Source: a virus
Lineage: Duplodnaviria; Heunggongvirae; Uroviricota; Caudoviricetes
IMG/VR virus record: IMGVR_UViG_3300019755_000001
Direction: 5' to 3' (one strand)
DNA length: 64,000 nucleotides
Part shown: positions 3,100-63,215 of the stretch, one piece after another
Layout: each line of letters opens with the position of its first letter
Numbering within the stretch: the first letter of the stretch is position 1
The notes under the pieces: model-generated
The model's input: the letters and a program-made list of their open reading frames with translations, nothing else
What the model was told of the DNA's origin: nothing
Database searches by the model: none
Translations under genes and position numbers: made by a program

Positions 3100-3190
3100 T
3101 GAAGTGCCTTTGTTGTTTTTCTTTAGTATACTGTAGTGTTTCTTAAGGAGTGTTGAAGTAGTGTTGACTAAGGCCGAGTGACCTTAGTGT

Positions 3191-8260: not shown

Positions 8261-9292
8261 TCACATCTCTATTAACGTTGGCTGAACTGTCACATAGTCT
8301 TTAGCCGCTGTCTGTTGGTTAGGATGGAAGCTGTAGTCAGTACTTGAGCTTTTACTCAAGTTGCATGAAGCACAACTCCAAACTACATTGTTTATTGTGT
8401 GTAAGCCTCCTTTACTGATAGGAAATACGTGATCTAAGTGTATATACTTGGGCTTTAAGTAAGTCAATACATTATCACAGTACTTACAGCGGTGCCTTTG
8501 ATCCTCCATTAATGCTTTCAATGCCGGACCTGTTACTGTTCCGTCACTGACTTCTTTTTTCTTACTTGTGTACTTTGCTCTAGCTTCTTTAGCAATTGCC
8601 TGGCCTTTAGCAGACTCTCTGTAACGTTTACAAGTAGCTTTAGCTTTCTCAATGTGTCTCAATCTAGACTCTCTCTTAGCTTGTTTGACTTTAGCGGAGT
8701 TTGCCTTATTATACTCTTGTCTAGCTAGTCGTTGTCGTTCTACCTCTTCCGCCGATCGGTTACTCCTCCGTTCCCTCTCCGACTTTCTATAAGCTTCAAT
8801 GTCTTTATTTCTCCACGCTTTATTTTTTGCGGCTAGTCGTTCTTTATTATTCTCTCTATATTTCTTATCTGATAACCTCTTAACTTCTTTTCGTTGTTGT
8901 TTCTTTGTTGCCTCATTTTTCAACCTTTTATTAAGTTTACCTATTAATAAAAGTGCAGGCGGCTTCTTAAACTTGCAGTAGGTGTGCACAGCATTTAGTA
9001 TACCAAGTCCTAACCTTCTCTGGTATTCGACATAGAGCTTTGCAGTAGGTTTGATTTTCTTCTCTAGCGCACATAAGGGACAACCTAGCTTTCCATTTAG
9101 ATGCTTGTCCATACTAGTTTCCCAATCAGGGTGTCTACCTGTATTACATCGAAGTGTACTAGAGTCTTTAACCCCCTTAAATGTAAATAGAGAGTAGTCG
9201 TATTTATCTCCGTGGATTTGAGCTATCCTGCTAGGCAGTTTATTGTATGTCTTTATAGATACTTTGTTCGTTACAGTTGAGTGTAATTTCAT
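8261..9292 (-). CDS. HNH homing endonuclease with one N-terminal Cys/His repeat module and a Lys/Arg-rich linker
   Basis: 343 aa. The C-terminal HLDHVFPISKGGLHTINNVVWSCASCNLSK is a classic HNH motif. The N-terminal IHGDKYDYS...GKLGCPLC matches the repeat unit of the 4542-5693 and 32916-34061 proteins. Confidence 0.8.
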   Translation of the reverse strand: MKLHSTVTNKVSIKTYNKLPSRIAQIHGDKYDYSLFTFKGVKDSSTLRCNTGRHPDWETSMDKHLNGKLGCPLCALEKKIKPTAKLYVEYQRRLGLGILNAVHTYCKFKKPPALLLIGKLNKRLKNEATKKQQRKEVKRLSDKKYRENNKERLAAKNKAWRNKDIEAYRKSERERRSNRSAEEVERQRLARQEYNKANSAKVKQAKRESRLRHIEKAKATCKRYRESAKGQAIAKEARAKYTSKKKEVSDGTVTGPALKALMEDQRHRCKYCDNVLTYLKPKYIHLDHVFPISKGGLHTINNVVWSCASCNLSKSSSTDYSFHPNQQTAAKDYVTVQPTLIEM

Positions 9293-11391: not shown

Positions 11392-11845
11392 GCTTATTCC
11401 TTTGTTACTAACAGTATACTCTCAATATACTTAACTTCTACTGAATTATTTCCGGAAATTTTATAGGATCGGGTATTTACCAACTTGTCTAGGCCTTACC
11501 TCAACCTCAACCGAGCAGGTGATTTTGGTATTACCAAGTTCTCATAGGCACGCTCTTAACCCTCCGCTCAGCCGGTCTTTTATACCCTATACTACTGATT
11601 TGATAACTCCATTGTTTATTAGTAGGATAATATAGATGATAAGTATGGTATTGATAACGATTATCAGTAAGACGTGTGTCATTTTTAAATTTTCGGGGAG
11701 GGAGGTACTAATATCACTTTTACCGACATACAACCAGACGGCCCCCCCATTGATTTCACCTGCCATTCAATTCATGTACTTCCCTGAACCGTTTACTTTA
11801 CTTGCTTAGGCGTGTCATAGACATAGCTTAATCTAAGGATTTATT
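11392..11845. promoter_or_regulatory. divergent intergenic control region (strand switch)
   Basis: 454 bp without ORFs, sitting between the first minus-strand gene and the first plus-strand gene. Contains GTATA-CTCTCAA-TATAC and other small inverted repeats. Individual promoters could not be assigned confidently by eye. Confidence 0.4.
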
Positions 11846-22831: not shown

Positions 22832-23304
22832 TACTTGTGAGTTGCTTATACTGGTGCTAACAACAGTGAGTAACGGCATGTTAGTTATATGGTCTAGCCA
22901 TACCGAGGAGTCATGACCTCATTATATGTTTACCAGCCGGTGATTAATACTAGTTAAACGATCGATAACAACATAAGCAATTCTCAAGTGAACTATTCAC
23001 TCCCAGCCCAGGGTCAGAGAGCAAATAGGTTATGTCTTCCTACACAAAAAGCGATTATCTTAGTACTATTGGAACAATTGTTTTCTACATTTGTTGTACT
23101 ACTTAAGAAATCAAAAAAAAAACTATTTACTGCAAACTATAGAAGAGGAACTATCATCAACCTCTTCTATAACTATGTGTGTTTCATTACAATAAAAGGA
23201 GAGCTTACCTTTGTCTTAAGAAACGCTGTCCCTGCCTACGCATACAAACACCAAGCTCGACACACATATAGTTATAGAAGAATAAATTAATTTAAAGGAC
23301 TAAT

Positions 23305-32915: not shown

Positions 32916-34061
32916 ATGAAATTACATCCAGGTATTACCAATCCTAGATCTATACAGGCTTATAAAAATTTTAAAAAGAAGCTAATTGGTCTGTATGATG
33001 ATAAATGTGATTATAGTGAGGCTGTGTACACAGGTGCTAAAAATCCTATTACGATTACGTGTAAAATACATAATTTTACTTATAAGCAAAGAGCTGAAGG
33101 ACACCTTAAAAGTTCTGGGTGTAGTAGATGTAAAAACGAGGCTGTAGGAAATCGTTTACGTAAATCAGTTTTCAGTTTTATTGCGGAGGCCGTTGAAGTA
33201 CATAATGATTTTTACACCTACTCTAATATTTCTTATCACTCTGCACATGAACCTGTGATCATTACTTGCCCAATCCACGGGGATTTTAAGCAAGTACCTA
33301 CAAATCACCTAAAAGGTGTTGGGTGCAGAAAGTGTGGCATTGCAAAGAGTAGCCAAGCTAAAAAATCCAGTACTCAAGAATTTATACTACAAGCAAAAGC
33401 AGTGCATAATAATACTTACACTTATACAAACGTCGAGTACACAACTGCAAGAGACAATGTAAAAATAACCTGTCCAATACATGGAGACTTTGAACAAACT
33501 CCTAGTAGTCATTTGGTTGGGTCTGGTTGCCCTAGATGTCTAGGTAGGAATAAAACCACGAAAGACTTTATCAAAGAATCACAAAAAGTACATAATAATA
33601 AGTACTATTACTCAAATACAATATACACAAATGCGAAAAGTAAAGTGATAATCACTTGCTCAACGCATGGTGATTTTGAACAAATAGCCTCCGATCACCT
33701 ATCAGGTAGAGGCTGCTCTTCCTGTACGAAAACGGGGTTTGATGGGGCTAAATCAGCTGTACTATATTATCTTTCAATCAATAACGGAGAAGCGTATAAG
33801 ATCGGTATAACAAACCGGACAATTAAAGAGAGATTCGGGCTTGATATGAGTAATATCAGAGTCTTACATCAAATCCATTATAAGTCCGGAAAAGATGCTT
33901 ACAATGAGGAACAGCGAATTCTTAGAGAATTCATTGACCATAAGTATACAGGTCCTGACTTATTGAAGTCAGGTAATACAGAATTATTCAAAACGAATAT
34001 CCTTAACCTAGCTTATGAGAAGTTCAAGGATATGGAATTATTTAGTAGAGAAGGAGATTAA
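32916..34061 (+). CDS. homing-endonuclease-like protein; paralog of 4542-5693 (four Cys/His repeats plus T5orf172/GIY-YIG-like domain)
   Basis: 381 aa. Four repeats (VHN.FYTYSN..Y.....ITCPIHGDFEQ.P..HL.G.GC..C). C-terminus VLYYLSINNGEAYKIGITNRTIKERF...SGNTELF. Confidence 0.6.
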   Translation: MKLHPGITNPRSIQAYKNFKKKLIGLYDDKCDYSEAVYTGAKNPITITCKIHNFTYKQRAEGHLKSSGCSRCKNEAVGNRLRKSVFSFIAEAVEVHNDFYTYSNISYHSAHEPVIITCPIHGDFKQVPTNHLKGVGCRKCGIAKSSQAKKSSTQEFILQAKAVHNNTYTYTNVEYTTARDNVKITCPIHGDFEQTPSSHLVGSGCPRCLGRNKTTKDFIKESQKVHNNKYYYSNTIYTNAKSKVIITCSTHGDFEQIASDHLSGRGCSSCTKTGFDGAKSAVLYYLSINNGEAYKIGITNRTIKERFGLDMSNIRVLHQIHYKSGKDAYNEEQRILREFIDHKYTGPDLLKSGNTELFKTNILNLAYEKFKDMELFSREGD

Positions 34062-35099: not shown

Positions 35100-35630
35100 A
35101 TGCCAAACAATATTACAACTACACTAACTATTAGCGGACCAGAAGCGGGTACAATTTTACCTAAGTACCAATCATCGGAATCTGAGTTTGATTTTAATTT
35201 AATCATTCCTATGCCGTCTGGGCTTGAGGGAACTACTTCTCCTTGTGAACCTAACGAGGAGCTTATTACCAAGTACGGAGCAGACAACTGGTACACTTGG
35301 AGACTGAAGAACTGGGGAACTAAGTGGAATTGCTACGATATTATTATCTCTGATACAGAAGTACAGTTCGATACAGCTTGGTCTTGTCCAGAGGCTATTA
35401 TTAAGCACTTATCAATTGTTCATCCTGACCATACTTTCACAGCAACTTTTGCTGATGAAGATATTGGGTACAACTGTGGAGTTCTAACATTCACTAATGG
35501 CGAAGGTAAGTTCGACGATATGTCTGTCGGACAGCTTGATTCTGAGGAAGCTTCAATTAGATGGGCCTTAACTACGAAGTATGGTTCTGATGATGACTAC
35601 GAAGAATGGTATGGTGAGGAACAGAACTAG
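35100..35630 (+). CDS. hypothetical Trp-rich protein
   Basis: 176 aa with NWYTWRLKNWGTKWN. Confidence 0.45.
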   Translation: MPNNITTTLTISGPEAGTILPKYQSSESEFDFNLIIPMPSGLEGTTSPCEPNEELITKYGADNWYTWRLKNWGTKWNCYDIIISDTEVQFDTAWSCPEAIIKHLSIVHPDHTFTATFADEDIGYNCGVLTFTNGEGKFDDMSVGQLDSEEASIRWALTTKYGSDDDYEEWYGEEQN

Positions 35631-35793
35631 TTGAGCCTTACTATTGTTTGCAGTAATTCGTCAAACCTCCTCCAACTCTCGCAATTTCAGCACCATATGT
35701 GTAGGCTCCCAAGCCTTAGCAGTTGGTGCGACTGATCTTTATCTTTATTAAGATGAATATCTTTACTAGATATTCCCTTTAATAGATAAACCG

Positions 35794-35886
35794 CGTATAA
35801 CCGTATGTTTGTCGGCATTAATTTCCGCCAATCTGTCGGTGTATAACCTGCTATTTTGTCGGTACTATATTCCACACTTTTGTCGG
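35794..35886. repeat. iteron-like array: four TTTGTCGG/TGTCGG direct repeats at 23-24 bp spacing plus two GTATAACC repeats
   Basis: TGTCGG at 35810, 35834, 35857 and 35881; GTATAACC at 35794 and 35841. The array sits in a 470 bp ORF-free, AT-rich region upstream of the HTH initiator-like gene. Confidence 0.5.
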
Positions 35887-36099
35887 TTTTTAGCGAACTA
35901 TTACTTTTACTTATATCTCTCAGTATTAATCTATCTTTAAGTGCTTACCCAGTATAATCTCTTAGTAGCTTTTAATAAACAGCAGTAGCCCGGTTCGTCC
36001 AGTACCAGTTTCTCCTGTTGTTTATTAAGTGCTATCAGAGGAACGGAACTGGACATTCTTTTTTACTCTCACTTAAATTTTATTAATCCGAAAGATCAC

Positions 36100-36642
36100 A
36101 TGAGTGAATCAACAACAGCCAATGGATGGCAAGCATTAGGTAAACTTCTTTTATGGAGTTTTGGTAAATTACAAGGTAACGACCATTTGGTGTACATGGC
36201 TATCGCACGTAAGTGTGTTGGGTATTACCAGTATACCACGGAACTACTCAGCTACTCTGAACTCAGCAAGCTTACTGGAGTTTCTGTACGTTCTATTGAG
36301 CGTATTGTTCCCAAACTTATTGCTTCTGGTTTTATCATCAAGGTAGCAACTAACCAAATTTCTTACGCTGGTAAGTTACCATATAAGTACCAACTGAATA
36401 TGAAGTTAGCGGAATTTCCATCTCTTGGCAATCTGTACTCTAATCGTATTGACTCAATCGTAACAGAACCAACGCCTGAGCCTAAGTTTATCTGCCCTCC
36501 TGTCGAGGATTATTTCATCATTAACGGACAAATTGCTTTAATCAGCGATCCGCTATTTGCAGGGAAGTTAGCCATTGCTACCAAGGATGGTATCATACCT
36601 AACCCAACTGTCGAACAACTAACCAATCACTTAAGGAACTAA
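36100..36642 (+). CDS. HTH protein, candidate replication initiator / replisome organiser
   Basis: 180 aa. YSELSKLTGVSVRSIERIVPKLIASGFI is a winged-HTH typical of phage initiator N-terminal domains. Its position next to the iterons supports the call. Confidence 0.4.
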   Translation: MSESTTANGWQALGKLLLWSFGKLQGNDHLVYMAIARKCVGYYQYTTELLSYSELSKLTGVSVRSIERIVPKLIASGFIIKVATNQISYAGKLPYKYQLNMKLAEFPSLGNLYSNRIDSIVTEPTPEPKFICPPVEDYFIINGQIALISDPLFAGKLAIATKDGIIPNPTVEQLTNHLRN

Positions 36643-37562: not shown

Positions 37563-39377
37563 ATGCAAGAACGGCCTTACCAAACCCAATATGTTGATGG
37601 TATTCAACTTAACCAATCCAACCTGATGATCTCAACCATGCGTTCAGGCAAATCCTATATTTTGGAGCGAATTATTGAGCGTTACTTCACTGGTAAACGT
37701 GTATTAATTCTAGTGGGGATGCGCAATATAGTGCTCCAGTTAGCGGACTACTTCGACGACCATACGTTTATTCTAACCGGTAAACACCACGACGATAACA
37801 AACATATTCAACTTGCGACATTTCAAACCTTTCAGAGAAGGTCAATAGATCTGTCTAGCTACGATTTAGTTGCTATTGACGAAGCACATATGCGGTACGA
37901 CACCAAGTTAGTGAAGGAAATTCGCAGCTTATCTTGTACTCGATTGTTTATGACTGGTACACCACTCAAGCCTAATGGCCGGTTCTTAGATGATTCGATC
38001 GACAACATACTGGAATTCACTAGCATGAAGCAGATGCTATCTGACGGTTATCTTGCACCAACTCGGTTCATCTCTCGGTACAATCTACTGGCAGACGAAT
38101 CATCTATTGGTGTACGGAATGGTGAGTACATCGACACGGACATTGAACGTGTTCTGGACAAGTCTGCTGTTGTTGACCAATTGGTAGCTGATGCGAACCA
38201 ACTCAACTGGGCTACTGAGCACAAGTGTATTCTGTACGTTAACTCAATCCACACAGCGATGAAGGTGTTTGATGCATTCGCAGATCCAGCCAATGTACGT
38301 GTTATTCACTCCAAGCTGAGCAAGTCTCAATTGGAAGTTGTCACGAACTGGTACGAGGACTGTACTAATGGTATTATCATCAATGTTCGTATGCTTACGA
38401 TTGGGTATGATTCACCGACTACTGATACTATATTGTACCTCACACCAACTCGTGTGACTTCGCTGTTCTTGCAATCTGTCTGGCGTGCATCTACGCTCAA
38501 CGGCAACAAACAAGCAACTGTTTACGATTACTCTGGTACTTTATCTCGTATTAACCCATTCTTCAACGATTGGCGTAAGGAAAAGCCAACCTGTCGTGAA
38601 CAGTGTGCGAAGCTGAAGAATCCTATGGAGAGGTTCTTTTGTGAAGCATCTTGTGTATCTGAACCGCCTATGTCGACTTGTGATGGTCAACTACCATACT
38701 CACTAATCGACAACCCATATGTTAGCAACTTCACCATCAGCTCGGGCGAACCTTGTGGAGAAACTGTGCCGGTTTTCAACATGTCTTTCAAGTCAACCGA
38801 GCCGAGTGTTGGTGTTTTACGTAAGTGGTCCAAGTGTAAGTGTGGTTGTGTATCGTATTACGACGTAGCAACTCTCACCGAACCATCGCAGATGATTACT
38901 ATGTACCAAGACGAAGTGCCGAGCAATTGTGTTACTATCTTGTACTCCCAAGAGCACGGTAAAGCACTAGCAATCCTCGACGATCTTAACAAGCCGACTT
39001 ACTCGTTCAAGATGTTCACCAACTCAACTGAGCTGTACGAGCACTGTCTCAAATACTTTAACGACCAGCCGTTTACTATTTTGTCTAACGCCAAGTCTAA
39101 GTTACCGAACGTTGTTGTTGATACTGAACTGAACTACGCTCTACCCCTAGTTAATTGGGAGTCTGAGTCGAACACAGGACTGATCAAGAAGCTAATCCGG
39201 TCGAAGTTGGAGCACATTTGTGAGCATTTTTCAATCCGTAAGGGCTATGCGTATTACCAGATGAAGAACATCACGAGCCAGAACGCTAAACAAATTATGA
39301 ACACACTGAACTCAAGTGACTTATCACGAGCCGCTTTAATCAAGTGTTTCAAAAAAATTGAACCAAAGGACAATTAA
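37563..39377 (+). CDS. SF2 DEAH-box DNA helicase with C-terminal Cys-rich region
   Basis: 604 aa. Motif I ISTMRSGKSYI, motif II LVAIDEAHM, motif III MTGTP. Cys cluster CREQCAKL...CEASC. Confidence 0.7.
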   Translation: MQERPYQTQYVDGIQLNQSNLMISTMRSGKSYILERIIERYFTGKRVLILVGMRNIVLQLADYFDDHTFILTGKHHDDNKHIQLATFQTFQRRSIDLSSYDLVAIDEAHMRYDTKLVKEIRSLSCTRLFMTGTPLKPNGRFLDDSIDNILEFTSMKQMLSDGYLAPTRFISRYNLLADESSIGVRNGEYIDTDIERVLDKSAVVDQLVADANQLNWATEHKCILYVNSIHTAMKVFDAFADPANVRVIHSKLSKSQLEVVTNWYEDCTNGIIINVRMLTIGYDSPTTDTILYLTPTRVTSLFLQSVWRASTLNGNKQATVYDYSGTLSRINPFFNDWRKEKPTCREQCAKLKNPMERFFCEASCVSEPPMSTCDGQLPYSLIDNPYVSNFTISSGEPCGETVPVFNMSFKSTEPSVGVLRKWSKCKCGCVSYYDVATLTEPSQMITMYQDEVPSNCVTILYSQEHGKALAILDDLNKPTYSFKMFTNSTELYEHCLKYFNDQPFTILSNAKSKLPNVVVDTELNYALPLVNWESESNTGLIKKLIRSKLEHICEHFSIRKGYAYYQMKNITSQNAKQIMNTLNSSDLSRAALIKCFKKIEPKDN

Positions 39378-40414: not shown

Positions 40415-40801
40415 ATGAATCACATCAAACATTTCGAGCAACTGCTCATCATCAACCGTCGATTAGCAGCAACTGGCCTGCCTGTTGTGTTGAACTTAAC
40501 TTATCAATGTAAGAGTAAGTTTTTAGTGCTTTGCCATTTAGAGAAAGACAAAAATATGTATGGTTTATCACACAATGTTGATAAACGAGCATGGCCAACT
40601 ATGGACAGAATAATCGAAGAAGCACACAAACTGTGTCAGCCTCAGTTTATCCCAGTCAAAGCCATTTGTATCAACGCACTTGGACAAACTTTCTGGCTTG
40701 ACGAGCAAACTGAAGTAATTGTCGACTCTATCGCAGCTGATGGAGTTCATTTATCAGATGGTCAAGTTGTTTCAACTGACCGTCTATTCATTAAGGAGTA
40801 A
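40415..40801 (+). CDS. hypothetical protein
   Basis: 128 aa. Confidence 0.45.
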   Translation: MNHIKHFEQLLIINRRLAATGLPVVLNLTYQCKSKFLVLCHLEKDKNMYGLSHNVDKRAWPTMDRIIEEAHKLCQPQFIPVKAICINALGQTFWLDEQTEVIVDSIAADGVHLSDGQVVSTDRLFIKE

Positions 40802-40802
40802 T

Positions 40803-41774
40803 ATGTCACACTTAACTGATGTAGCCACTGCACAGCAAGCTAACTTAATCACAATCAACGGTAAGTCATTTACCAACAACTCCAACGTACCTAGGGAGCT
40901 TAGTCTCATGTTCGCATGGGCCTCAACTCAGTACGACGGCAAACCAACTACAGCAACCAACATATCTGTGTCTGATATTATCGGACCAATGCGTAAGCTA
41001 CTGTACAAGATAACTCACCCGGTTACTACTGATTCTATGGACATTATGTCTATTAGCAAATCAGCAATTGGTACTATCTTACACACAGGCATGGAAGAAG
41101 CCTTAAATTCTGTTGGTGGGTATACGCAGGAAGTACGGTCGGAGACGACTATCCTTGGTGTTACTGTATCTGGTAAATTCGATATTGTCACACCTGATGG
41201 AGAAATCAAGGATCTGAAGAACATATCTAGTTTTGCGTACAAGTTACTTATGCAGGACAAGGATGCAGTTCAACCTGGTCTATCTATCCAGGAGATGTAC
41301 GAGCAATTCCCAAACTACGCCAAATACACAATGCAGATGTCTATGTACAGATACTTGAACCAAGAATTAGTTACTAAGCCTTATGGCTCTATCTTGTTCA
41401 ACTTAACGTCTAGCTCGTTCCAGGATGATTTCCCAACTTACTCAGAGATGAAGTTCCCCCTATTCCCTGTTGAAGAGATTCACCAGTACTTAATTGAGCG
41501 TATCAAACTGATGCAACAGCACTTAGCAGCCGGAACTTACCCTGACTGTACACCGAACGAACGAGGAACTCGTCCGCCTAGTTACAAACTGCAACGAATG
41601 GGAAAAACTGGTAAACTAGCAACTGTTCGCGGGTCGAAATTTGACAACGGTGCTGAGTTCAGGCAGTTTGTCATGACTAAGGGTAAACCTGGCGATGTCG
41701 AAAATATCGAGGAGAGCAGACACATTCTGTGTGAGTATTGCTCATTCAGTCACAGCATATGTGACCAAATATAG
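40803..41774 (+). CDS. RecB-family / Cas4-like PD-(D/E)xK exonuclease
   Basis: Start moved to Met29 after a GGAG RBS. Motifs: GTILHTGMEEAL, GKFDIVTPDGEIKDLK (D...ExK), QMSMYRY (QxxxY), C-terminal Cys cluster CEYCSFSHSIC. Confidence 0.55.
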   Translation: MSHLTDVATAQQANLITINGKSFTNNSNVPRELSLMFAWASTQYDGKPTTATNISVSDIIGPMRKLLYKITHPVTTDSMDIMSISKSAIGTILHTGMEEALNSVGGYTQEVRSETTILGVTVSGKFDIVTPDGEIKDLKNISSFAYKLLMQDKDAVQPGLSIQEMYEQFPNYAKYTMQMSMYRYLNQELVTKPYGSILFNLTSSSFQDDFPTYSEMKFPLFPVEEIHQYLIERIKLMQQHLAAGTYPDCTPNERGTRPPSYKLQRMGKTGKLATVRGSKFDNGAEFRQFVMTKGKPGDVENIEESRHILCEYCSFSHSICDQI

Positions 41775-43043: not shown

Positions 43044-43122
43044 GGACATTTAGCTCAGTGGTAGAGCGCCTGCACTAGCATGAAATAACAGGAGGCCACA
43101 AGTTCAACTCTTGGAATGTCCA
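43044..43122 (+). tRNA. tRNA-like gene, 79 nt, with a ~15-nt anticodon loop
   Basis: Acceptor GGACATT/AATGTCC. Canonical D-arm TAGCTCAGTGGTAGAGCG. The 5' anticodon stem CCTGC is followed by ACTAGCATGAAATAA and then (A)CAGG. T-arm CAAG-TTCAACT-CTTG. 3' end A-CC. Confidence 0.4.
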
Positions 43123-43295
43123 CCTTACACCGCAACATGCTCATGAAAGAGGCGGTATATAAATAGACAAGTGAAGAGCAGGAATGGGGAATTGATAGAA
43201 TCATCCGCAGCCTTAAAGAGCAAGGGAACTATCACGAACAAGTAGGGTCTTATCCAATTGGATTTGTACTTCTACGCAAACAGTAAATTTACGCA

Positions 43296-46406: not shown

Positions 46407-46556
46407 ATGGACAGTATACACGACCCACTAACTCAAGCAATCATTTACAGGGCGGAGATCTTGGAACGTCTGGAGTTAACAATACACCAATCTGAGCGTG
46501 ATAATTTAGTCAGTGTATTAACTAAACTAGATACATACATATTGGAGCAATCATGA
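46407..46556 (+). CDS. hypothetical small protein (49 aa)
   Basis: Not in the ORF track. AAAGGAG RBS; ATGA overlap with the polymerase gene. Confidence 0.35.
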   Translation: MDSIHDPLTQAIIYRAEILERLELTIHQSERDNLVSVLTKLDTYILEQS

Positions 46557-49210
46557 TTAATTTACTGCTCACTGAATTTATTCCAGGATACACCCAATCA
46601 ATTAACCAGTACATCAAGTCGGAGTTTGATCTTGAACCAACTGACTTGAACATCATCATGGTCGGCTCGTTACCACGTGATGACGGCAAGTACTTGATTG
46701 ACCATTTAGTCGGTACGGTTGTTACGGATTACTGGCAATTCAAATCAACTGACAACGTTCGACGAATTGACGACATGGCAACTGTATCTGATGTTGGTGA
46801 TATTGTAGCATCTCATTTCATCACACCAAAAGTTTGGTACACTGATGAAGTAGAAGTAGCCCAACGCTGGCTGGCTAAGTTACCAAGCACTTTTGCTTAC
46901 GATACAGAAACTCGTGGTCTAGCAATCAAGGACATTGGTGACATTACTATGCACTCATTTAGTATCCCCAAAGGGAACTCTATTGTGCTTATTGACTCTC
47001 CAGTTATTCGTGCGCTAATCTTTGATTTTCTTATAACTACTGAGCAATCTGTGGTTTGCCATAATCTTGCTTTCGATATGAGACCAATTTATCGAGCTAC
47101 TAGTAAGTTCATCAAGAACTACGAGGATACTCAACTAATTGCTCAAGCATATATGAACAACGCCAAGCAGCCTTTATTTAGCTTGAAAGCTTTAGCTGGC
47201 GGATTATTAGGTGATTGGGCTTCAGCAAAAACCTCTTTTGAACTTTATGAAGACTCTACTGACTATGACAATCCCAACCTAGTATATGTCGGCTCTAATC
47301 CTGATGTAACGAAGTACAACTTACCTCTTATTTACTACGCAGGGGTAGATACAACCGCTACAATCCATTTGTGGAACAAGTTTTCACGAATCGATCCTGA
47401 GTTTGAATCAGTGGATATTGGGGACTTATTACCAATTCCTGAACCAAGGTACCATGAGGAATCCCCACGTTTCTTCTATGAGAACGTACTGAAGCCTCTT
47501 ATCCGTACAAATATTGAACTATTGGAAACACCAATGCCTATTGATATGGGTATTGTTGAGGAGATTAAGCAGGAGGCATTGGATCAGAAGGAGCCCGCAT
47601 TTGATAAGCTGCAGAATTTCCCAGCTGTTATGGAGTATATGGCAACAGTCAAAGCACAACTAATTACCAAGTTAACTGAACCTTTACTGGAGCAGAAGCG
47701 TAACTGGCCTGTTCGTGTATATAAACACACACCAGCTGATCGTACGTTTGTGATGAACAAACTAACTGGCGAATCTCGTGATTCCTGGAAGATTGTTGAT
47801 ATTAAGCAGTACTTGAAGGAGGAAGAAGCACCTGACCCACTAGTTCAAGCAATTCTTGATAAGTCGGATAGCTTGCCTACTAACTCACGTATGCAAATTC
47901 TCATGAAGAGTCATCGTACCCTGAACCAAACCAAGTTGCAACATAAGCTTGATAATCCTGAGCAGTATCTTGACCCTAAGCAAACTGTAATTAATCCAAA
48001 TGCGTCACAGCAAATGCGTGGATTATGGAAGTCTTTGGGCCTTGAGTCTGATGTACTTACTCCGAAGAAGGAGGAATCTTTCAGTAAGGAAGTACTTGAG
48101 TCCATTGTGAAAACAACGTCTAACCAAACCGCGAAAGAGGTGATTCAGCAAGTCTTGGAAATTGCAGCTACTAAGAATTTACTTTCACAGTACATCCCTG
48201 CCTACGAACATAGCAGCAAAGATGGTTTTTGTTATCAATCAATGAAGTGTCCTGGTACCAAATCTTACCGTATTTCTGGAGCTGTTGGGAAGGTTGATAA
48301 ATCTGTTATTTCAGATGAACCTCTGTCTGGTTTTGGTGCGTCAATGGTAACACAACCAGGAATCACCAAGCGAGCAGTTGTTGCTCCTGACGGATTTATT
48401 ATTGCTACGTCGGATTATGCAGGTCTTGAGGGAGTAATTGGGGCGTGTATTACACATGACCCAAACAAAGTGGCTATCTTTAACGATGGTTTGGATCTTC
48501 ACTGTCTTAACGCAGCTTCTTTCTTCCAACCGGAAGTAGAGGAGTTACTTGGTCGTCCTGTGGAACAAACTCTGGAGTTCAACAAGTTCTTCAATGCGTT
48601 CAGGAAGGAACACAAGTCTGCCGACAAACTACGTTCAGCTGCTAAGTCTCCCAATTACCTTCTTGAGTATGGTGGGTATCCTCCCAAACTCTCGAAAGAT
48701 TTGGGTTGTAGTCTAGCTGTTGCACAGAGTATCTTTGATAAGTTCCATTATGAGACGTTTTTAGGTACTACCAATTACCGTGAGGATTATGTGTTACCTA
48801 CTGTTGTAAAACAAGGGTACTTACATCTTGGTCTGGGTGCGCGAATTTACTCTAGCAATCCCCAGAAGGATATACGTACTGTTACGAATGCAGGATATCA
48901 ATTCTGGTCTATATTAACTCTCATTGGACTGTACCTTATCAAGGAACGAATTAAGTCGGCTGGGTATGAGCATGATATTTTTATCTACTCAACTATACAC
49001 GATTCTATTACAGCATATGTACGACAGGACCCAGCTATTATTAAGTGGTATAATGACAACCTTATTGAGTGTATGGTACCGGATTTTCTTATTGACCAGG
49101 AAGTAACTCTTGAGTCTAATGTGGATATTGGCCCATCGTATGATAAATGTGTGGAACTACCAAACGAATGTTCTATTGAACATATTAATCAAGTCTTAGC
49201 TACTTTTTAG
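46553..49210 (+). CDS. DNA polymerase I family (family A) with 3'-5' exonuclease domain
   Basis: 885 aa. Exo I motif FAYDTETRGL. Pol motif B RSAAKSPNYLLEYGG (R..AK..N....YG). Motif C region YSTIHDSI. Confidence 0.85.
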   Translation: MINLLLTEFIPGYTQSINQYIKSEFDLEPTDLNIIMVGSLPRDDGKYLIDHLVGTVVTDYWQFKSTDNVRRIDDMATVSDVGDIVASHFITPKVWYTDEVEVAQRWLAKLPSTFAYDTETRGLAIKDIGDITMHSFSIPKGNSIVLIDSPVIRALIFDFLITTEQSVVCHNLAFDMRPIYRATSKFIKNYEDTQLIAQAYMNNAKQPLFSLKALAGGLLGDWASAKTSFELYEDSTDYDNPNLVYVGSNPDVTKYNLPLIYYAGVDTTATIHLWNKFSRIDPEFESVDIGDLLPIPEPRYHEESPRFFYENVLKPLIRTNIELLETPMPIDMGIVEEIKQEALDQKEPAFDKLQNFPAVMEYMATVKAQLITKLTEPLLEQKRNWPVRVYKHTPADRTFVMNKLTGESRDSWKIVDIKQYLKEEEAPDPLVQAILDKSDSLPTNSRMQILMKSHRTLNQTKLQHKLDNPEQYLDPKQTVINPNASQQMRGLWKSLGLESDVLTPKKEESFSKEVLESIVKTTSNQTAKEVIQQVLEIAATKNLLSQYIPAYEHSSKDGFCYQSMKCPGTKSYRISGAVGKVDKSVISDEPLSGFGASMVTQPGITKRAVVAPDGFIIATSDYAGLEGVIGACITHDPNKVAIFNDGLDLHCLNAASFFQPEVEELLGRPVEQTLEFNKFFNAFRKEHKSADKLRSAAKSPNYLLEYGGYPPKLSKDLGCSLAVAQSIFDKFHYETFLGTTNYREDYVLPTVVKQGYLHLGLGARIYSSNPQKDIRTVTNAGYQFWSILTLIGLYLIKERIKSAGYEHDIFIYSTIHDSITAYVRQDPAIIKWYNDNLIECMVPDFLIDQEVTLESNVDIGPSYDKCVELPNECSIEHINQVLATF

Positions 49211-52210: not shown

Positions 52211-52828
52211 ATGAGCAATATTGAATCAAAAATAGCAACCGACCTTCAGCACCTTGTTAACCAGTACGAAGCCGAACTAGGTTTTTTACAGAACCGTAAC
52301 ATGCGTCAATTTGACACATCTGGTCTACCATCAATCATGCAGGACATGATCAAGTTAGCTACTAGCAAATCACCATCATTCTCGAACGTGTCTGCACTGA
52401 GTGTAGCCAATTTCGTTCTTAGCCATTTATTTGGACAGTGTCGACCAGTAATCAACGACCCAATTTATTCGGACGATGTTATTGGTATCAACACATATGG
52501 AATGGTAATCAGTAAGTCTGGTTCTGGTAAGGACTCAACTTACCAAGCTTTATCGAAGGCAACTGCATCAGCACTTGAGCTAATCAACTCTATGCAACGT
52601 GACGAAGCCGAGGAGAAAGCCAAACTATCTTACTGCAAAGCGATGAAGGCAGCTAACCCTGAGTTTGACGAGAGCACAGTGACTATCGAGGACTTCAAGG
52701 ACGAAGTACCGAAGTTGGAGATGGCTATTACCAGTCTTGCCTCAACTCGTGGCGGACTTACTTCATCGATGAACCGAATGGCGAAGTCTCAATTTGGTAC
52801 TAAGTCAATCTTCAGCTCGGAATTGGGT
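52211..52828 (+). CDS. exon 1 candidate of an intron-split P-loop protein (or stand-alone 206-aa ORF)
   Basis: GMVISKSGSGKDST is Walker-A-like, similar to T7 gp4 SGSGMGKST. The last sense codon GGT ends in U at 52828, immediately before the in-frame TAA. Confidence 0.45.
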
Positions 52829-54026
52829 TAACTAACCAGCCCCTCGTACTCGTGAGAGTATGTAGCAAAATTCTTTAATTGTCTGGAACGTCTTGTTAGG
52901 CGTACACTAGGATATTACCACGAAAGTAGGTAACGAACCCTGAAAATGTGTACGATAGAGAAAATCAGCAGCGAAGCATCGTAGTATTAATTTACCGATG
53001 AACGTTCAACGAACATCCCGTCAGGGAGTAGAACCTCTAGTTATAAAATGAGGAAGAAATAGGAATAAACTAACTTATTTAAGTTACAAATAAATATTTT
53101 CTGCTATAATGTTATTAAACATAATAGGAGAACATAATGGAAGAAATACATAAAGATATCAAAGGCTTTGAGGAATTATACTCAATTACCAGTAAAGGTA
53201 GAGTTTACTCTAAACGTAGTAAGATCTATTTAACACTGGCAAAGTCTATCCAACCGCAAACAACCTATCTTAGGGTGACATTACAAGACAATGGCAGAAT
53301 CGAGAGATTCTTAGTCCACCGACTTGTAGCATCACACTTCATAGACAACCCAACTAACAAACCGTGCGTAAACCATATTGACAATAACGGGTCTAACAAC
53401 TCAGTTAACAATATCGAGTGGTGTACCTATTCAGAGAACCTCGTACATGCTCAATTACAGGGTAGGCTATTTGAGTCTCAGTCTAAAGGCGGACAAGCAG
53501 CAAATGCTAAAGTTCAAGCAGAAATCGCTGAACAAGTAGCAGAGTTAACTGGTCGTACATTTGGTTTATGGGAAGTCACAGGATTTCACGGACGTGAAGA
53601 GATTGGGACGCAAGGAATGTTCAGATTTAATATGAATGTAACTTGTACAGGGTGTGGAACGGATTCAGTAGTTGATAAAAATCAATTAATCTCTGGTAAA
53701 TCTGAAGGTTGTTTAAGTTGTAGGACTAAACAAGCTGGAAGAGAACGTTCAGTTAGGACATTGGAGAAACTCAAAGGCACATATAAGGATCACTGGCATA
53801 TACTGGATTACTACTTCGACGATGAAGTACAAGTCTTAACTTGTCAATGTACTTTATGTGGTGATACTACTGATAAAAAGAAATCTAGTCTTATAGGACG
53901 GCCTATGAGAAAATGTAAAATTTGTAAAAATAAATAATTTAGTTTAAGATATGTTCTAATCTTACAGGAGACTGTAAGCGAGTTAAAAGCTCGGAGTAAG
54001 TGTAACGCCTTACTTGAATATAAATG
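52829..54026 (+). mobile_element. candidate group I intron (~1.2 kb) carrying an HNH homing endonuclease ORF
   Basis: Core-like elements: P AATTGTCTGGAACG (52877-52890); Q AATCAGCAGCG (52963-52973); R GTTCAACGAACA (53004-53015); S AAGATATGTTCT (53946-53957). R GAACA pairs with S TGTTC. A GCCCC guide at 52841 can pair with the exon-1 end GGGU. Terminal G at 54026 leaves exon 2 in frame. Confidence 0.45.
53137..53937 (+). CDS. HNH homing endonuclease (NUMOD4 + HNH_3 type, I-HmuI-like)
   Basis: 266 aa; AGGAG RBS. NUMOD4-like GFEELYSITSKGRVYS. HNH_3 motif FLVHRLVASHFIDNPTNKPCVNHIDNNGSNNSVNNIEWCTYSEN. C-terminal Zn-ribbon Cys pairs. Confidence 0.8.
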   Translation: MEEIHKDIKGFEELYSITSKGRVYSKRSKIYLTLAKSIQPQTTYLRVTLQDNGRIERFLVHRLVASHFIDNPTNKPCVNHIDNNGSNNSVNNIEWCTYSENLVHAQLQGRLFESQSKGGQAANAKVQAEIAEQVAELTGRTFGLWEVTGFHGREEIGTQGMFRFNMNVTCTGCGTDSVVDKNQLISGKSEGCLSCRTKQAGRERSVRTLEKLKGTYKDHWHILDYYFDDEVQVLTCQCTLCGDTTDKKKSSLIGRPMRKCKICKNK

Positions 54027-55694
54027 ATGGCAATCCAGTCTAACTCCACTATCATGGAAGTTCTTGAGCTTTTCTCAGTTCTTTTCGATATGGGGCAGTC
54101 TGTTGCACCGGAGTTCAAGGGCCTGGAGTCGAAGGAAGAAGCAGTTGATAACGCTTATACTAATTTACTTGGTATTAGTTCACCAACTCCATTCTACCAA
54201 GCAGATGGTAACGTTCGTAAGTTGCTGGTACCAATGTTAACTACTTCATTAGCTCGTAGAATTACTGTTGTTTTCTCTAATGCTAAAGAAGAGTTTGAGA
54301 ACAAGGTAATCCCAGGAACTCCTGCAGAGAACCGTACTCGACAAGCCGAAGCTAGGCAGAATGTTAGGGAACTTACTCTATCAATCGACGAACTTATGTT
54401 AACTGCTATCAAGTCAATTATGGACGACGGACAAATCATGTTCGACGAGGATGCAGCAATTGTATACGACGACTACAAGTCATATACCAACACACTGAGC
54501 GAATTACTTCTGTTGAAGGATGGTGAATCTGTGGAAGGTATCGAGATGGCAGGTAGAGCGTTCAAGATGGGCAGGATCGCAGCAACTTGGGCAATGGCAC
54601 AGAACAAACGAACTATTGACAAGCAAACACTAATCGCAGCAATTTACTTCTGTGACTACACTGCGGAGCATCTTAAACGTTTTGCAGCAACTCTGGAACT
54701 CAAAGACTATGAGCTGTTCATCAACGATTGGGAGCAAGGTTTTTTCGACAATATTTTACCAATTGACGAAGCAATCACTCGTGGATACATAACTACTCGG
54801 CAAGTGAACAAGGCAGCCCTTGAGGGATTTCTTAAGCCTGTTAACTCACGTTTAGCTGGTACAGCAACTGTTTCATACAACGACAAGGACAACGCATTTG
54901 TGTTTATTCCAGTTGTTACTAATACGGTATCCGGTGATTATTCATTCAGAGCAATCTCAACTTTCTCTGACGAACGACCAATCCATGCGATTCACGAAAA
55001 TCGTCCAGCCGAGTCTCTTGGCAAGTTGACTAGCAAGTTATCATCATTCAATCCATTTGTTGATGATACTACCAAATTCATCTGCCTGTCTGTTACTGAT
55101 TCATTTCTGTCTATGCAGCAAGTGAACACATACTTAGCCGATACACAGCACTTTATCAGCACAGTAGAACCGAATAACAACCACTCATTCAACTTGGTTA
55201 TTCCGTTGAACACGGTTATTAGCAAGTCTGAGTACAAGTTTGTTTGTTTATCAGTTGCCGAGCAGATGATGTTGAAAGCCTTACCAGAATTACACGAAGC
55301 GGAGTCTATTTACCACGGGGTGAACGATTCTGTTCAACTTACTCATCAACCTGATGCGAAGTTGTTTGATGTGTCTGGTATTGTCGGTAATTACGCAAGT
55401 GGGTCTGATGTACCATTGCTAACTGTTAAGTCGAAGACGAAGCCAGCAAAGAACATTGTTGATAAGTATTTAAAAGATGACATCCTAGCCCATCGAGGCG
55501 ATATTGTCGACATGCTTGATGCATCTGACAATCCACTATTACTGATGGCAGGATTGTATTACGATATGGCTTGTCATTATGTGCCAACTGAACGTGCTAC
55601 TGACGTTGTCAACAACATTAACTCAAGCCTTATTGAGTCAATCCCATCAGCGGTGATTACTGAATTTGTAATCGAACCATTTCAATCTATTTAG
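54027..55694 (+). CDS. exon 2 candidate (556 codons) of the intron-split protein; function unknown
   Basis: The ORF opens exactly after an in-frame TAA at 54021-54023 and has no RBS. This is consistent with expression only after splicing to 52828. Confidence 0.45.
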   Translation: MAIQSNSTIMEVLELFSVLFDMGQSVAPEFKGLESKEEAVDNAYTNLLGISSPTPFYQADGNVRKLLVPMLTTSLARRITVVFSNAKEEFENKVIPGTPAENRTRQAEARQNVRELTLSIDELMLTAIKSIMDDGQIMFDEDAAIVYDDYKSYTNTLSELLLLKDGESVEGIEMAGRAFKMGRIAATWAMAQNKRTIDKQTLIAAIYFCDYTAEHLKRFAATLELKDYELFINDWEQGFFDNILPIDEAITRGYITTRQVNKAALEGFLKPVNSRLAGTATVSYNDKDNAFVFIPVVTNTVSGDYSFRAISTFSDERPIHAIHENRPAESLGKLTSKLSSFNPFVDDTTKFICLSVTDSFLSMQQVNTYLADTQHFISTVEPNNNHSFNLVIPLNTVISKSEYKFVCLSVAEQMMLKALPELHEAESIYHGVNDSVQLTHQPDAKLFDVSGIVGNYASGSDVPLLTVKSKTKPAKNIVDKYLKDDILAHRGDIVDMLDASDNPLLLMAGLYYDMACHYVPTERATDVVNNINSSLIESIPSAVITEFVIEPFQSI

Positions 55695-60914: not shown

Positions 60915-61073
60915 ATGAACAAACAAGAAGCATTACAGGAACTATCTTACCTAATTTGGGATGTGTCTCATCCTGATGAGTGGGATACAAACAGCGTTAA
61001 GGAATGGGAGTCCTTACAAATTAGCATAGCCAAACTCATTACCTACATAGAATCCTTGCCTGATGAGTTATAA
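60915..61073 (+). CDS. hypothetical small protein
   Basis: Start moved to the Met after an AAAGGAA RBS; 52 aa. Confidence 0.35.
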   Translation: MNKQEALQELSYLIWDVSHPDEWDTNSVKEWESLQISIAKLITYIESLPDEL

Positions 61074-62556
61074 GTTAACCAACGAGCAGCAAGCGATTGT
61101 TGACTTCATCTCCAACCCAACTGATACTTTACTCAAAGTACAAGCAGTTGCCGGAGCATCGAAGACTACAACCCTAACCGAAGCAGCTAAGCAACTTCAA
61201 CTGTCACATCCAGGCAAGGAGTTTAAATATTTAATTTTTGGTCGAGCAGCTAGTGAGGAAGCACGTACAGCATTCGGTACTAATGCAGTTGTATCAACCA
61301 TTCACCAACTTGCTTATGCACATACCATCCGTACTTCTAATATGAATGTCTCACGTAAGGGCTATTTGTCTTACCACGATGTTCCCAAGTCTATCAAACG
61401 ACCATTTGGGATTGATTACAACGTGTTTCAGCTGATTAATCAGTTTACTTCGTCTCGATTCTTGGAACTTGGTCAGTTTATCAATGACTTTCCACGAACG
61501 GAACGACCATCTACTGACATGGTTCACTATGCACGACTGTATATGAATCACATGCTGAAGGGTACTATGCCTTGCACACACGATTTCTATCTGAAGGTAT
61601 TCCATCGTAAACTGATGAATGGCAACCTTCAACTCGACGAGGTTGATGTGTTAGCTGTTGACGAAGCCCAGGATCTTACTCCAATCACTCTCGACATATT
61701 CGACAACTACCCGGCCAAACTGAAGGTTGTTGTTGGTGATGAGTTTCAGTCTATTTTCGGATGGATGGGGTGTATCAATGCATTCGAGTACTACGCAGGT
61801 CAGGGCACAACTCTTCAGTTAACCAAGTCCTTTCGTGTGAATGTAGCTGATGCCAAACTAATCCAGAACTTCACTAACTCAACTTTTGCACCGGATATGG
61901 TATTCGAGGGTTTCGACTCACCTGAACCAACTAATCCGTCTTACGCATATTTAACCCGTACTAACTCCGAGTTGATTGCCAAGATGATGGAACTGAACAA
62001 GTGCGGAACTCCGTACAAGCTATCTAGCACAACGAAAGTCGACCAGATGTTCAAATTACCTCTTGGTATTCTGTATCTTAAACCTGGGTATAACCAGAAA
62101 TCGCCTGAATTGATGGACTTGCAGAAGGACGTCGACAACTGGCATTCTAGCCACAAACTCAAGCGACTGTACAAGAACAAGTACACTATGTTGTTGGGTC
62201 TACACAAAGGTAACTCAACTATCGAGCAAGCAGTTAAACTGGTGTTGCAGTGTAAGGATACGGATGCACTAATCGCAGCAAGGGAAGCAGCAGAAGCTCA
62301 CAAGAAGTCTTCAGCCAATCTCAGCTTGATGACAGTACACACAGCCAAGGGCGGAACATTTACCCACGTCGAACTTGATGATGGTATTGGCAAGTCTATT
62401 GACGATACTCTAGCATTGCTACGAACTGGCAACCACACATTAACAGCAACCGAACGTGAGTCATTGATGATTGCATATGTAGCAGTAACTAGACATACTG
62501 CAACATTAAAAAATGCTGATTTTTTATACCAAGGAGGAGCAAATGATACCGATTAA
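61063..62556 (+). CDS. UvrD/Rep-family (SF1) DNA helicase
   Basis: 497 aa. Walker A AVAGASKTTTL. Motif II VLAVDEAQDLTP. Motif VI-like VHTAKGGTFTHV. Confidence 0.75.
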   Translation: MSYKLTNEQQAIVDFISNPTDTLLKVQAVAGASKTTTLTEAAKQLQLSHPGKEFKYLIFGRAASEEARTAFGTNAVVSTIHQLAYAHTIRTSNMNVSRKGYLSYHDVPKSIKRPFGIDYNVFQLINQFTSSRFLELGQFINDFPRTERPSTDMVHYARLYMNHMLKGTMPCTHDFYLKVFHRKLMNGNLQLDEVDVLAVDEAQDLTPITLDIFDNYPAKLKVVVGDEFQSIFGWMGCINAFEYYAGQGTTLQLTKSFRVNVADAKLIQNFTNSTFAPDMVFEGFDSPEPTNPSYAYLTRTNSELIAKMMELNKCGTPYKLSSTTKVDQMFKLPLGILYLKPGYNQKSPELMDLQKDVDNWHSSHKLKRLYKNKYTMLLGLHKGNSTIEQAVKLVLQCKDTDALIAAREAAEAHKKSSANLSLMTVHTAKGGTFTHVELDDGIGKSIDDTLALLRTGNHTLTATERESLMIAYVAVTRHTATLKNADFLYQGGANDTD

Positions 62557-63077: not shown

Positions 63078-63215
63078 TATCTGGCATTCGACTTCAACCT
63101 CTACCATGTGTAACCACAAAGTAAGTTTAATGGATTTAAGTTGATGTAAGTCCTTCTTTCGGATTAAGCTTTTGTAAGCTATAATCTCAACCAATTAATT
63201 TTAAAGGAAACAAAT

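Follow-up and report, generated by a model that had tools for sequence, protein, structure and literature searches.

We analysed a stretch of 64,000 nt from the virus record IMGVR_UViG_3300019755_000001 (Caudoviricetes; IMG/VR), which we call the window and to which all coordinates without a locus label refer. We found that positions 35730-36642 probably form a self-contained lambda-type origin of replication together with the gene for its own initiator in an uncultured, apparently virulent phage, the origin lying outside the gene. An array of four phased repeats (iterons) in a non-coding spacer is followed by a gene for a 180-aa winged helix-turn-helix (HTH) protein, here designated gp36100. 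We favour an origin because the array is non-random, the protein resembles O-like initiators in family and fold, the layout is conserved among relatives, the repeat core and the recognition helix of the protein vary together, the C-terminal domain of the protein is linked to the helicase type, the flanking DNA is unstable, and the geometry is that of ori-lambda. An earlier reading of the stretch, made without database searches (the sequence-only reading), had proposed iterons with a cognate initiator here; every prediction from that proposal that could be computed turned out as expected, namely those on the protein families, on the conservation of the array in diverged relatives, on core-helix co-variation, and on the spacing, number, and dyad symmetry of the units.

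The repeat array and its conservation

The hexamer TGTCGG occurs on the plus strand at 35810, 35834, 35857, and 35881, in steps of 24, 23, and 24 bp, which confirms the four phased repeats of the sequence-only reading. Three of the four copies lengthen to TTGTCGG and two of the four to TTTTGTCGGT. On both strands of the whole window, TGTCGG was observed 19 times versus 14.3 expected; as the hexamer as such is not enriched, its local cluster is the notable feature. Clustering alone is weak evidence, because 31 of 200 Markov-simulated 64-kb sequences contain some hexamer four times within 100 bp. Four copies of any hexamer phased at 21-25 bp were found in none of 400 first-order Markov simulations, and the array at 35810-35881 is the sole array of this kind that we found in the window.

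The 15-bp cores of units 1-4 (CCGTATGTTTGTCGG, 35801-15; CCGCCAATCTGTCGG, 35825-39; CTGCTATTTTGTCGG, 35848-62; CCACACTTTTGTCGG, 35872-86) are laid out as 6-3-6 imperfect palindromes. All four units have a perfect right half-site, TGTCGG, and the left half-site matches the reverse complement, CCGACA, at 4, 5, 3, and 2 of 6 positions, respectively. The two copies of GTATAACC described in the sequence-only reading are indeed present, at 35795 and 35841, and consist of the A-rich spacer plus the left edge (the first bases) of units 1 and 3; with three occurrences in the window versus two expected, they are not significant alone. The gene of gp36100 contains no TGTCGG array. The earlier placing of the repeats immediately upstream of this gene was incorrect, as 213 bp separate the end of the array from the ATG.

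A protein search with gp36100 gave 25 homologues, all metagenomic, and their contigs together with a metagenome scan provided about 20 loci (labelled within L001-L024). The sequence of L002 was masked by Ns, and the layout was read at the remaining loci. All readable loci except L011 have a common upstream layout, which consists, from 5' to 3', of a GC-rich hairpin, AT-rich DNA that carries repeats of the ATCT type and a palindrome, a conserved box, three to six repeat units, TTTTTA followed by AT-rich DNA, the motif TTAAG-N11-TAYAMT, either a small open reading frame (ORF) of ribbon-helix-helix (RHH) type or a structured leader, and the initiator gene. The spacing of the units is near-identical across lineages with unrelated cores and with initiators that are 39-59% identical (Table 1). 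Across the lineages, the cores are mostly 6-3-6 palindromes, which are near-perfect in L016, L018, and L020. The window array is conserved in L001, where a 45-nt repeat recurs 47 bp apart as a two-unit super-period, and in L003, L015, and L016, whose palindromes are better. The number of units varies between near-identical phages with the same initiator: L008 (5716-5780) has three units versus five in L009 (2532-2650) and L017 (773-890).

Table 1. Unit spacing, repeat core, and first residues of the recognition helix in the window and at related loci
Locus	Unit spacing (bp)	Repeat core	Helix start
Window, L001	24/23/24	TGTCGG	VRSIER, KRTVER, IRTIER (window, L001, L003, L015, L016)
L003, L015	24/23/22/22/27	TGTCGG	as above
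L016	24/23/22/22	CCGWCA-TTT-TGWCGG	as above
L008		CCGCAG-N3-(T)CGTGG	IRTIED
L009, L017	23/23/22/27	CCGCAG-N3-(T)CGTGG	IRTIED
L018, L019	23/23/23	GTGTA-N5-TACAC	IDAVKR
L020	23/23/24	GTCTAC-TTA-GTAGAC	LGGVKK
L012	23/23/22	GGACA-N3-TGACC	IKTVQR
L021		TGTATCA-ATT-TGATACA	
L006	21/21/21	AGGTYGTCTC	

In the case of L011 (5757-6858), the repeats, the palindrome, and the box are cleanly missing, and the promoter motif and the leader are kept. The L011 initiator is fused to an N-terminal T5orf172 (GIY-YIG-like) domain, and its copy of the otherwise near-invariant motif RxxVGYxQYT is degenerate. Site and protein seem to have decayed together; the loss of the array along with the decay of the most conserved motif of the protein fits a functional pairing of the two. 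With the repeats gone and the motif decayed, the L011 genome must start replication otherwise.

Small ORFs over the array (35809-35940, plus strand; 35687-35875, minus strand) were considered as coding regions and rejected, as they are not kept in relatives with other repeats; a 51-aa minus-strand gene called over the array in L001 was counted with them. No DnaA box (a 9-mer like TTATCCACA) was recognised in 35631-36099 by eye, without a formal scan; the best match, 6 of 9 positions, lies within the conserved box. Elsewhere in the window, three further hexamers form clusters of four copies within 100 bp (AGTGTT, 3135-3186; TAGCTT, 8581-8677; AACTAT, 23121-23171), none of them phased at 21-25 bp; the AGTGTT cluster overlaps a promoter-like motif at 3125-3146.

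The initiator-like protein and its putative reading of the repeats

The 180-aa winged-HTH gene named in the sequence-only reading is a real ORF. Its product matches the Pfam family HTH_36 with 27.8 bits (cut-off 25; E 2.1e-6), and its top PHROG is 678, 'replication initiation O-like' (E 1.3e-8); the next two PHROGs are also initiators. Phage_rep_O is on record for 10 of the 25 homologues. Rep_3 gave no match to gp36100 in Pfam at E <= 0.01, and no terminase family was found among its Pfam and PHROG matches. In the AlphaFold2 model (mean predicted local distance difference test score, 78), helices at residues 27-42 and 52-59 are followed by the recognition helix (63-76), a beta-wing (79-99), and a small alpha/beta C-terminal domain; there is one winged helix and not a WH1-WH2 pair. 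The wing sequence, GKLPYKYQLN, is nearly invariant among the relatives. The top fold matches in BFVD (E 5e-5 to 1e-3) are HTH_36 proteins, one protein named 'Bacteriophage lambda, GpO, N-terminal' (5.7e-5), and two named 'replication initiator'; in the PDB, the N-terminal domain of DnaD is among the fold matches (E 0.02). An hhalign comparison of the family profile with lambda O gave E 6.5e-4 at the LTKRQFKVLLAILRKTYGW...ITDSQLSEITKLPV segment (RKTYGW motif), and no similarity of gp36100 to the C-terminal half of lambda O was detectable.

In an alignment of all initiators, the first residues of the recognition helix track the repeat core (Table 1). The type of the RHH-like protein does not track the core: L016 and L020 have one RHH type (MKSKS..RVKMTLLLD) but different cores, as do L003 and L021 with a second type, and the window has repeats and no RHH ORF. 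Because the core co-varies with the recognition helix and not with the RHH type, the winged-helix protein is the predicted binder of the repeats. The A-rich spacers between the cores are nearly invariant across the relatives, and the wing may contact them.

Comparison of L006 with the window points to a natural domain swap. The N-terminal domains are only 24% identical and the repeats differ, with a 21-bp spacing in L006, whereas the C-terminal domains are 91-94% and the adjacent superfamily 2 (SF2) helicases 90% identical. The C-terminal domains of the family are of two types. The window type is encoded just upstream of the SF2 helicase gene in every relative that has this type, which makes this helicase a candidate partner of the domain, and the L008 type is encoded between a DUF3987 primase-helicase gene and a gene for a 259-aa protein; the window counterparts of these two genes are contiguous at 52.2-56.5 kb. 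As the origin-initiator unit occupies different positions in different genomes, it appears to behave as a cassette. The comparison suggests that the N-terminal domain sets the repeat specificity and that the C-terminal domain is exchangeable according to the helicase pathway.

We infer the following course of initiation from these observations. The N-terminal winged helix of gp36100 would bind the four 23-24-bp units, with the recognition helix reading the variable core (TGTCGG in the window), probably as dimers on the 6-3-6 imperfect palindromes and possibly with the invariant wing touching the conserved A-rich spacers. The fixed spacing of about 2.2 helical turns would allow the DNA to be wrapped into an O-some-like complex, which may strain one of the flanking AT-rich patches until it opens. 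The variable C-terminal domain would then recruit a phage helicase, either the adjacent SF2 helicase or the DUF3987 primase-helicase, rather than use a lambda-P/DnaB route. Transcription from the weak promoter-like box abutting unit 1 is probably under the control of this binding as well. The supply of the initiator may be set by the TTAAG-N11-TATAAT promoter and the structured leader, the latter being replaced elsewhere by a gene for an RHH-type repressor.

Flanking elements, leader, and neighbouring genes

The spacer at 35631-36099 (469 bp) lies between a gene for a 176-aa DUF1281_C-like protein, which ends at 35630, and the initiator gene; the features in and beyond it are collected in Table 2. 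The description of the spacer as AT-rich was right in part: the GC content is 0.37 versus about 0.40 for the window, and on either side of the array lies a very unstable AT-rich patch (35730-35790 and 35890-35940, each in the 99th percentile or higher). The spacer is not uniformly AT-rich, however, and the array itself is not AT-rich and has average or high duplex stability. Several inverted repeats are present, as had been stated. The right patch is a candidate DNA-unwinding element; an AT-rich 16-mer in it (TATTACTTTTACTTAT, 35899-35914) is common to the window and L006, though the repeats of L006 differ.

Table 2. Features of the putative origin-initiator cassette and of the replication genes in the window
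Feature	Position	Strand	Basis or description
Terminator-like GC-rich hairpin closing the upstream operon	35690-35729	+	fold -23.6 kcal/mol, z = -3.35; inverted repeat I4
Left AT-rich low-stability patch	35730-35790		75-78% AT; 99.3-99.5th percentile of duplex instability
Conserved box TTTAATAGATAAACCGCGTATAA, abutting unit 1	35778-35800	+	sequence comparison with relatives
Iteron array	35796-35886	+	four 23-24-bp units, each composed of an A/T-rich spacer and a 15-bp core
Right AT-rich patch, after the array-terminal TTTTTA	35887-35936		80% AT at 35900-35939; 99.8th percentile; only eight 40-mers of the window are less stable
Promoter-like P2, TTAAG-N11-TATAAT, facing the initiator gene	35937-35958	+	motif count and conservation
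Structured leader	35966-36064	+	inverted repeats I1 and I8; fold -29.6 kcal/mol, z = -2.9
Conserved motif CACTTAAATTTTATTAA, shortly upstream of the start codon	36070-36086	+	kept in the window, L001, L002, L006, and L011
Initiator-like gene (gp36100, 180 aa)	36100-36642	+	N-terminal winged HTH, about 8-112; variable small C-terminal domain, about 116-180
SF2 helicase (ResIII + Helicase_C)	37563-39377	+	Pfam/PHROG
PD-(D/E)XK-type exonuclease	40719-41774		
PolA	46553-49210		
DUF3987 primase-helicase, split	52211-52831 and 54024-55694		
UvrD-like helicase	61063-62556		

The hairpin is found in the same position in all relatives, and the two sides of its inner stem both differ between lineages (window, AGGCT/AGCCT; L003, GGTCC/GGACC). 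A stretch of about 35 nt on its 5' side (TTCGTCAAnCCTCnTCCAACTCTCGCAnTTTCA, from about 35655) is conserved at the DNA level in the window, L001, L006, and L011, and partially in L003 and L015; it is non-coding on the plus strand and has no Rfam match. The left AT-rich patch holds ATCTTT repeats and the palindrome ATATCT-TTACT-AGATAT (35757-35773). Palindromes with a conserved TTTAC/TTTCA-type loop and differing stems are present in L003, L015, L016, L018, L020, L022, and L012. The loop was considered as a -35 element and rejected, as its distance from the box varies from 12 to 15 nt across the lineages.

The box follows the pattern AATAGATWAAnyCGCGTAWAA and is near-identical before unit 1 in L001, L003, L015, L016, L017, L018, L019, L020, L012, and L022, despite their differing cores; it is absent in L006 and L011. 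It contains a weak promoter-like sequence, TTAAT-N12-TATAAC (35779-35801). The array thus lies between two promoter-like elements, unit 1 abutting this weak one and P2 being located downstream. P2 and the array do not overlap: a gap of about 50 bp separates them, and the last unit ends about 66 bp before the -10 element. The motif TTAAG-N11-TAYAMT occurs four times in the window versus 0.45 expected, a count reached in none of 100 shuffles, at 3125-3146 (-), 11413-11434 (-), 35937-35958 (+), and 63164-63185 (+), each time on the local coding strand. In L001, L003-5, L008-13, L015, L017-19, and L024, a match lies on the gene strand upstream of the RHH or HTH gene. The upstream element of P2 is about 11 bp from the -10 element, which is not sigma-70 spacing; the motif is reminiscent of activator-dependent phage middle promoters. 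A sigma-70 and terminator scan was uninformative, with counts equal to those of shuffled sequences, and Rfam searches of 35400-36300 gave noise only, with no score near any gathering threshold. No tRNA was found in the spacer. Exact-pattern scans of IMG/VR with the conserved box gave one chance match, inside an unrelated gene (L014), and none with the hairpin.

In the window lineage, L006, and L011, a structured leader lies between P2 and the initiator gene. In the window, it consists of a hairpin, A/A' (35966-88 / 36012-34), with an apical-loop segment, B (35997-36006), that is complementary to a downstream segment, B' (36045-54), and of a T-run (36059-64). The shuffle z-scores of the A/A' hairpin are -2.9 in the window, -2.75 in L001, -6.9 in L006/L007, and -3.4 in L011, and the B/B' complementarity is 9/10 in the window, 12/12 in L006, and 10/10 in L011, with B' located 8-12 nt past the hairpin. 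This A-B-A'-B' topology is found in three lineages (35966-36064 in the window; L006, 5860-5945; L011, 5875-5960) whose leader sequences are unrelated; thus, the topology is the conserved feature. The leaders were aligned with MAFFT, which is not structure-aware. A U-run follows the leader only in the window lineage, so that a simple terminator is unlikely in all leaders. The minus strand folds with nearly the same energy as the plus strand, and the leader is therefore not assignable to one strand by folding. No conserved antisense promoter opposite the leader was found in a search by eye.

In the other relatives, the place of the leader is taken by a small RHH-like ORF of 55-61 aa with a good Shine-Dalgarno sequence, which overlaps the start of the initiator gene. 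Its assignment is based on one sub-threshold match to RHH_1 in Pfam (19.7 versus 20.5 bits) and otherwise on sequence pattern. The leader is likely a regulatory RNA, a pseudoknot or a switch, and the loop-downstream pairing could gate initiator expression as a pseudoknot or as an alternative-structure switch. We tentatively suggest, although the idea is rather doubtful, that the initiator is controlled in cis by interchangeable devices between the origin and the gene, either an RHH repressor gene or an RNA leader of about 100 nt whose loop-downstream pairing gates expression, and that the origin-initiator unit moves as a cassette and swaps its specificity domains. Such leader/RHH logic resembles the plasmid copy control of ColIb-P9 repZ or of pMV158 copG/RNAII; if true, it would mean plasmid-like copy-control logic in a virulent phage.

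Downstream of the initiator gene, the helicase, nuclease, and polymerase genes are located as the sequence-only reading had described, together with a methyltransferase gene and a DUF3987 primase-helicase region (52211-55694). The DUF3987 protein is encoded by a single ORF of 751 aa in L008 and L018 and by two ORFs in the window (residues 3-205 and 206-751 by tblastn). As an HNH endonuclease gene (53137-53937) separates the two halves, an essential replication gene may have been interrupted by an insertion of the homing-endonuclease or intron type. Homing-endonuclease-type genes seem to cluster around the replication module. A gene for a 381-aa DUF723 / zinc-finger / T5orf172 endonuclease-like protein (PHROG 681; 32916-34061) lies about 1.6 kb upstream of the cassette, and L011 has a homologue nearby. 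About 2 kb upstream of the cassette, L006 (3298-4086) and L011 (4088-4876) carry a gene for a 262-aa RVT_1 reverse transcriptase; we noticed no counterpart at the corresponding place in the window. At 43044-43124, ARAGORN reported a tRNA-like gene of 81 nt whose anticodon it left undetermined ('tRNA-???').

No close relatives among cultured phages were found by megablast or by tblastn with the HTH protein, and an IMG/VR search with the single HTH protein gave no match. One of the relatives lies on a 100.6-kb IMG/VR genome. The closest known PolA relatives are those of Alteromonas phages AD45; as they are only about 31% identical, a marine gammaproteobacterial host is only a guess. The phage lineage appears to be virulent, consistent with the absence of initiator relatives from the 185,579 bacterial and archaeal species genomes of GTDB; none were found in plasmid-like contexts either.

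Comparison with known systems and alternative explanations

The sequence-only reading compared the region with lambda O/ori and with plasmid Rep/iteron systems. The likeness to lambda is borne out. The lambda record has four 18-bp iterons inside gene O, at 39034, 39054, 39078, and 39101 (steps of 20, 24, and 23 bp), which are dyad-symmetric (TCCCTC-N-GAGGGA) and followed by an A-rich tract. Lambda O binds as dimers, the AT-rich tract of ori-lambda is the unwinding site, transcription activates ori-lambda, and Stx phages have six iterons (PMC7466680). Shared by the window and by lambda O/ori-lambda and its Stx variants are an N-terminal winged helix of the O/HTH_36 type, four to six dyad-symmetric direct repeat units 20-24 bp apart with an AT-rich tract adjoining, an N-terminal domain that apparently sets the origin specificity next to an exchangeable C-terminal domain, and a possible contribution of nearby transcription. 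There are also differences. In the window, the array occupies non-coding DNA upstream of the gene and not the gene itself, is flanked by an AT-rich patch on each side, and is preceded by the conserved box and hairpin; gp36100 has 180 aa versus 299 aa for O; a loader like lambda P was not recognised nearby, and the phage SF2 or DUF3987 helicases are the likely partners; and the phage appears virulent, with an initiator that has no relatives in bacterial genomes.

With the iteron plasmids of the Rep_3 type (RepA of pPS10, pi of R6K, RepE of F), the likeness is one of mechanism only. Direct repeats adjoin an AT-rich unwinding element (a candidate one here), the gene next to them encodes the initiator and probably regulates itself, and the repeat number varies between close relatives (three in L008, five in L009). 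However, gp36100 has no Rep_3 match and, in the model, a single winged helix with a small C-terminal domain instead of WH1-WH2; the Rep_3 initiators are unrelated to it. As the units are palindromic, dimers rather than monomers are suggested as the binding species here. Bacillus phage SPP1 (G38P/oriL) and the DnaD-like replisome organisers likewise have a winged-helix origin binder, repeated boxes, and a hand-over to a phage helicase, but the similarity is only at the level of the generic fold; SPP1 oriL lies inside gene 38. In many relatives, an RHH-like gene precedes and overlaps the initiator gene as in copG-repB of pMV158, and an RNA leader replaces it in the window lineage; by analogy, the RHH gene and the leader may be alternative ways of limiting the initiator supply. 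Unlike gp36100, RepB is a rolling-circle HUH nuclease, to which gp36100 is unrelated, and no conserved antisense promoter is present here.

Several points weigh against an origin at this site. gp36100 scores below the Pfam cut-off for Phage_rep_O (18.4 versus 28.7 bits; E 0.0032, over the HTH_36 residues), the hhalign probability for lambda O is only 27%, and sequence and fold searches against the PDB gave only generic winged-helix regulators (Fur, MarR, DnaD-N). No GC skew signal was found at 35.8 kb; GC and AT skew show only a gene-orientation switch near 13-14 kb. Dimer binding is uncertain in the window because the left half-sites match poorly (2-5 of 6 positions). L011 apparently has no array within the +/-6 kb covered, so the cassette may be dispensable or redundant there. 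That replication starts at this array is itself a step that we infer, and an array between two promoter-like elements could act as an operator only.

If the array is only an operator, gp36100 would be a transcription factor that represses or times its own operon and the replication genes, and replication would start elsewhere or by a recombination- or transcription-dependent route. The position of the array directly downstream of the weak box and upstream of P2 agrees with this, as does the predominance of transcription regulators among the PDB fold neighbours; moreover, L011 retains the promoter and leader after loss of the repeats, and co-variation speaks for binding specificity and not for origin function. 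However, the nearest families are replication initiators, the well-conserved P2 is not overlapped by the array, and four to six phased sites with highly unstable AT-rich flanks are origin-like. The tracking of the helicase type by the C-terminal domain is hard to explain for a plain repressor, and the operon of many lineages already has a separate candidate repressor of RHH type. The sequence-only reading had named a transcription-factor site array as its alternative; the comparative and family evidence weakens this explanation, which we consider unlikely. If the array is an origin, it probably also serves autoregulation through the box promoter.

Another binder or purpose is conceivable, since winged helices or RHH folds that act on phased repeats are also known from small terminases and centromere-binding proteins. 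The repeats could serve packaging (a small-terminase-like winged helix on pac/cos repeats), act as a partition centromere, or be operator sites of the RHH protein, whose gene adjoins the array in many relatives. We regard this as very improbable: no terminase or ParA/ParM gene was found near the array, where the neighbours are helicase, nuclease, polymerase, and primase genes; the core does not track the RHH type, and the window lacks an RHH gene at this place; the PHROG matches are to initiators and not to terminases; and relatives in bacterial genomes or plasmid-like contexts were not found. Chance, or a recent local duplication without function, might be suspected from the super-period of L001 and from the unphased hexamer clusters that are common in simulations, but it is effectively refuted by the comparative data, the spacing being kept across diverged lineages with unrelated cores, and phased clusters are absent from the simulations.

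An origin with its own initiator therefore remains our preferred interpretation of the cassette. It would be a fairly ordinary origin, which otherwise confirms and does not change what is known of iteron origins. The cassette gives a concrete origin and initiator, at the confidence stated above, for a marine phage lineage of about 100 kb that has no cultured close relative, and it would be a mobile and modular one, in which the N-terminal domain moves with the iterons and the C-terminal domain with the helicase. The relatives form a natural specificity-swap series, with a constant scaffold and 23-bp spacing and at least seven cores paired with different recognition helices. This series could be of use in work on DNA recognition by winged-helix initiators or in the construction of orthogonal origin-initiator pairs.

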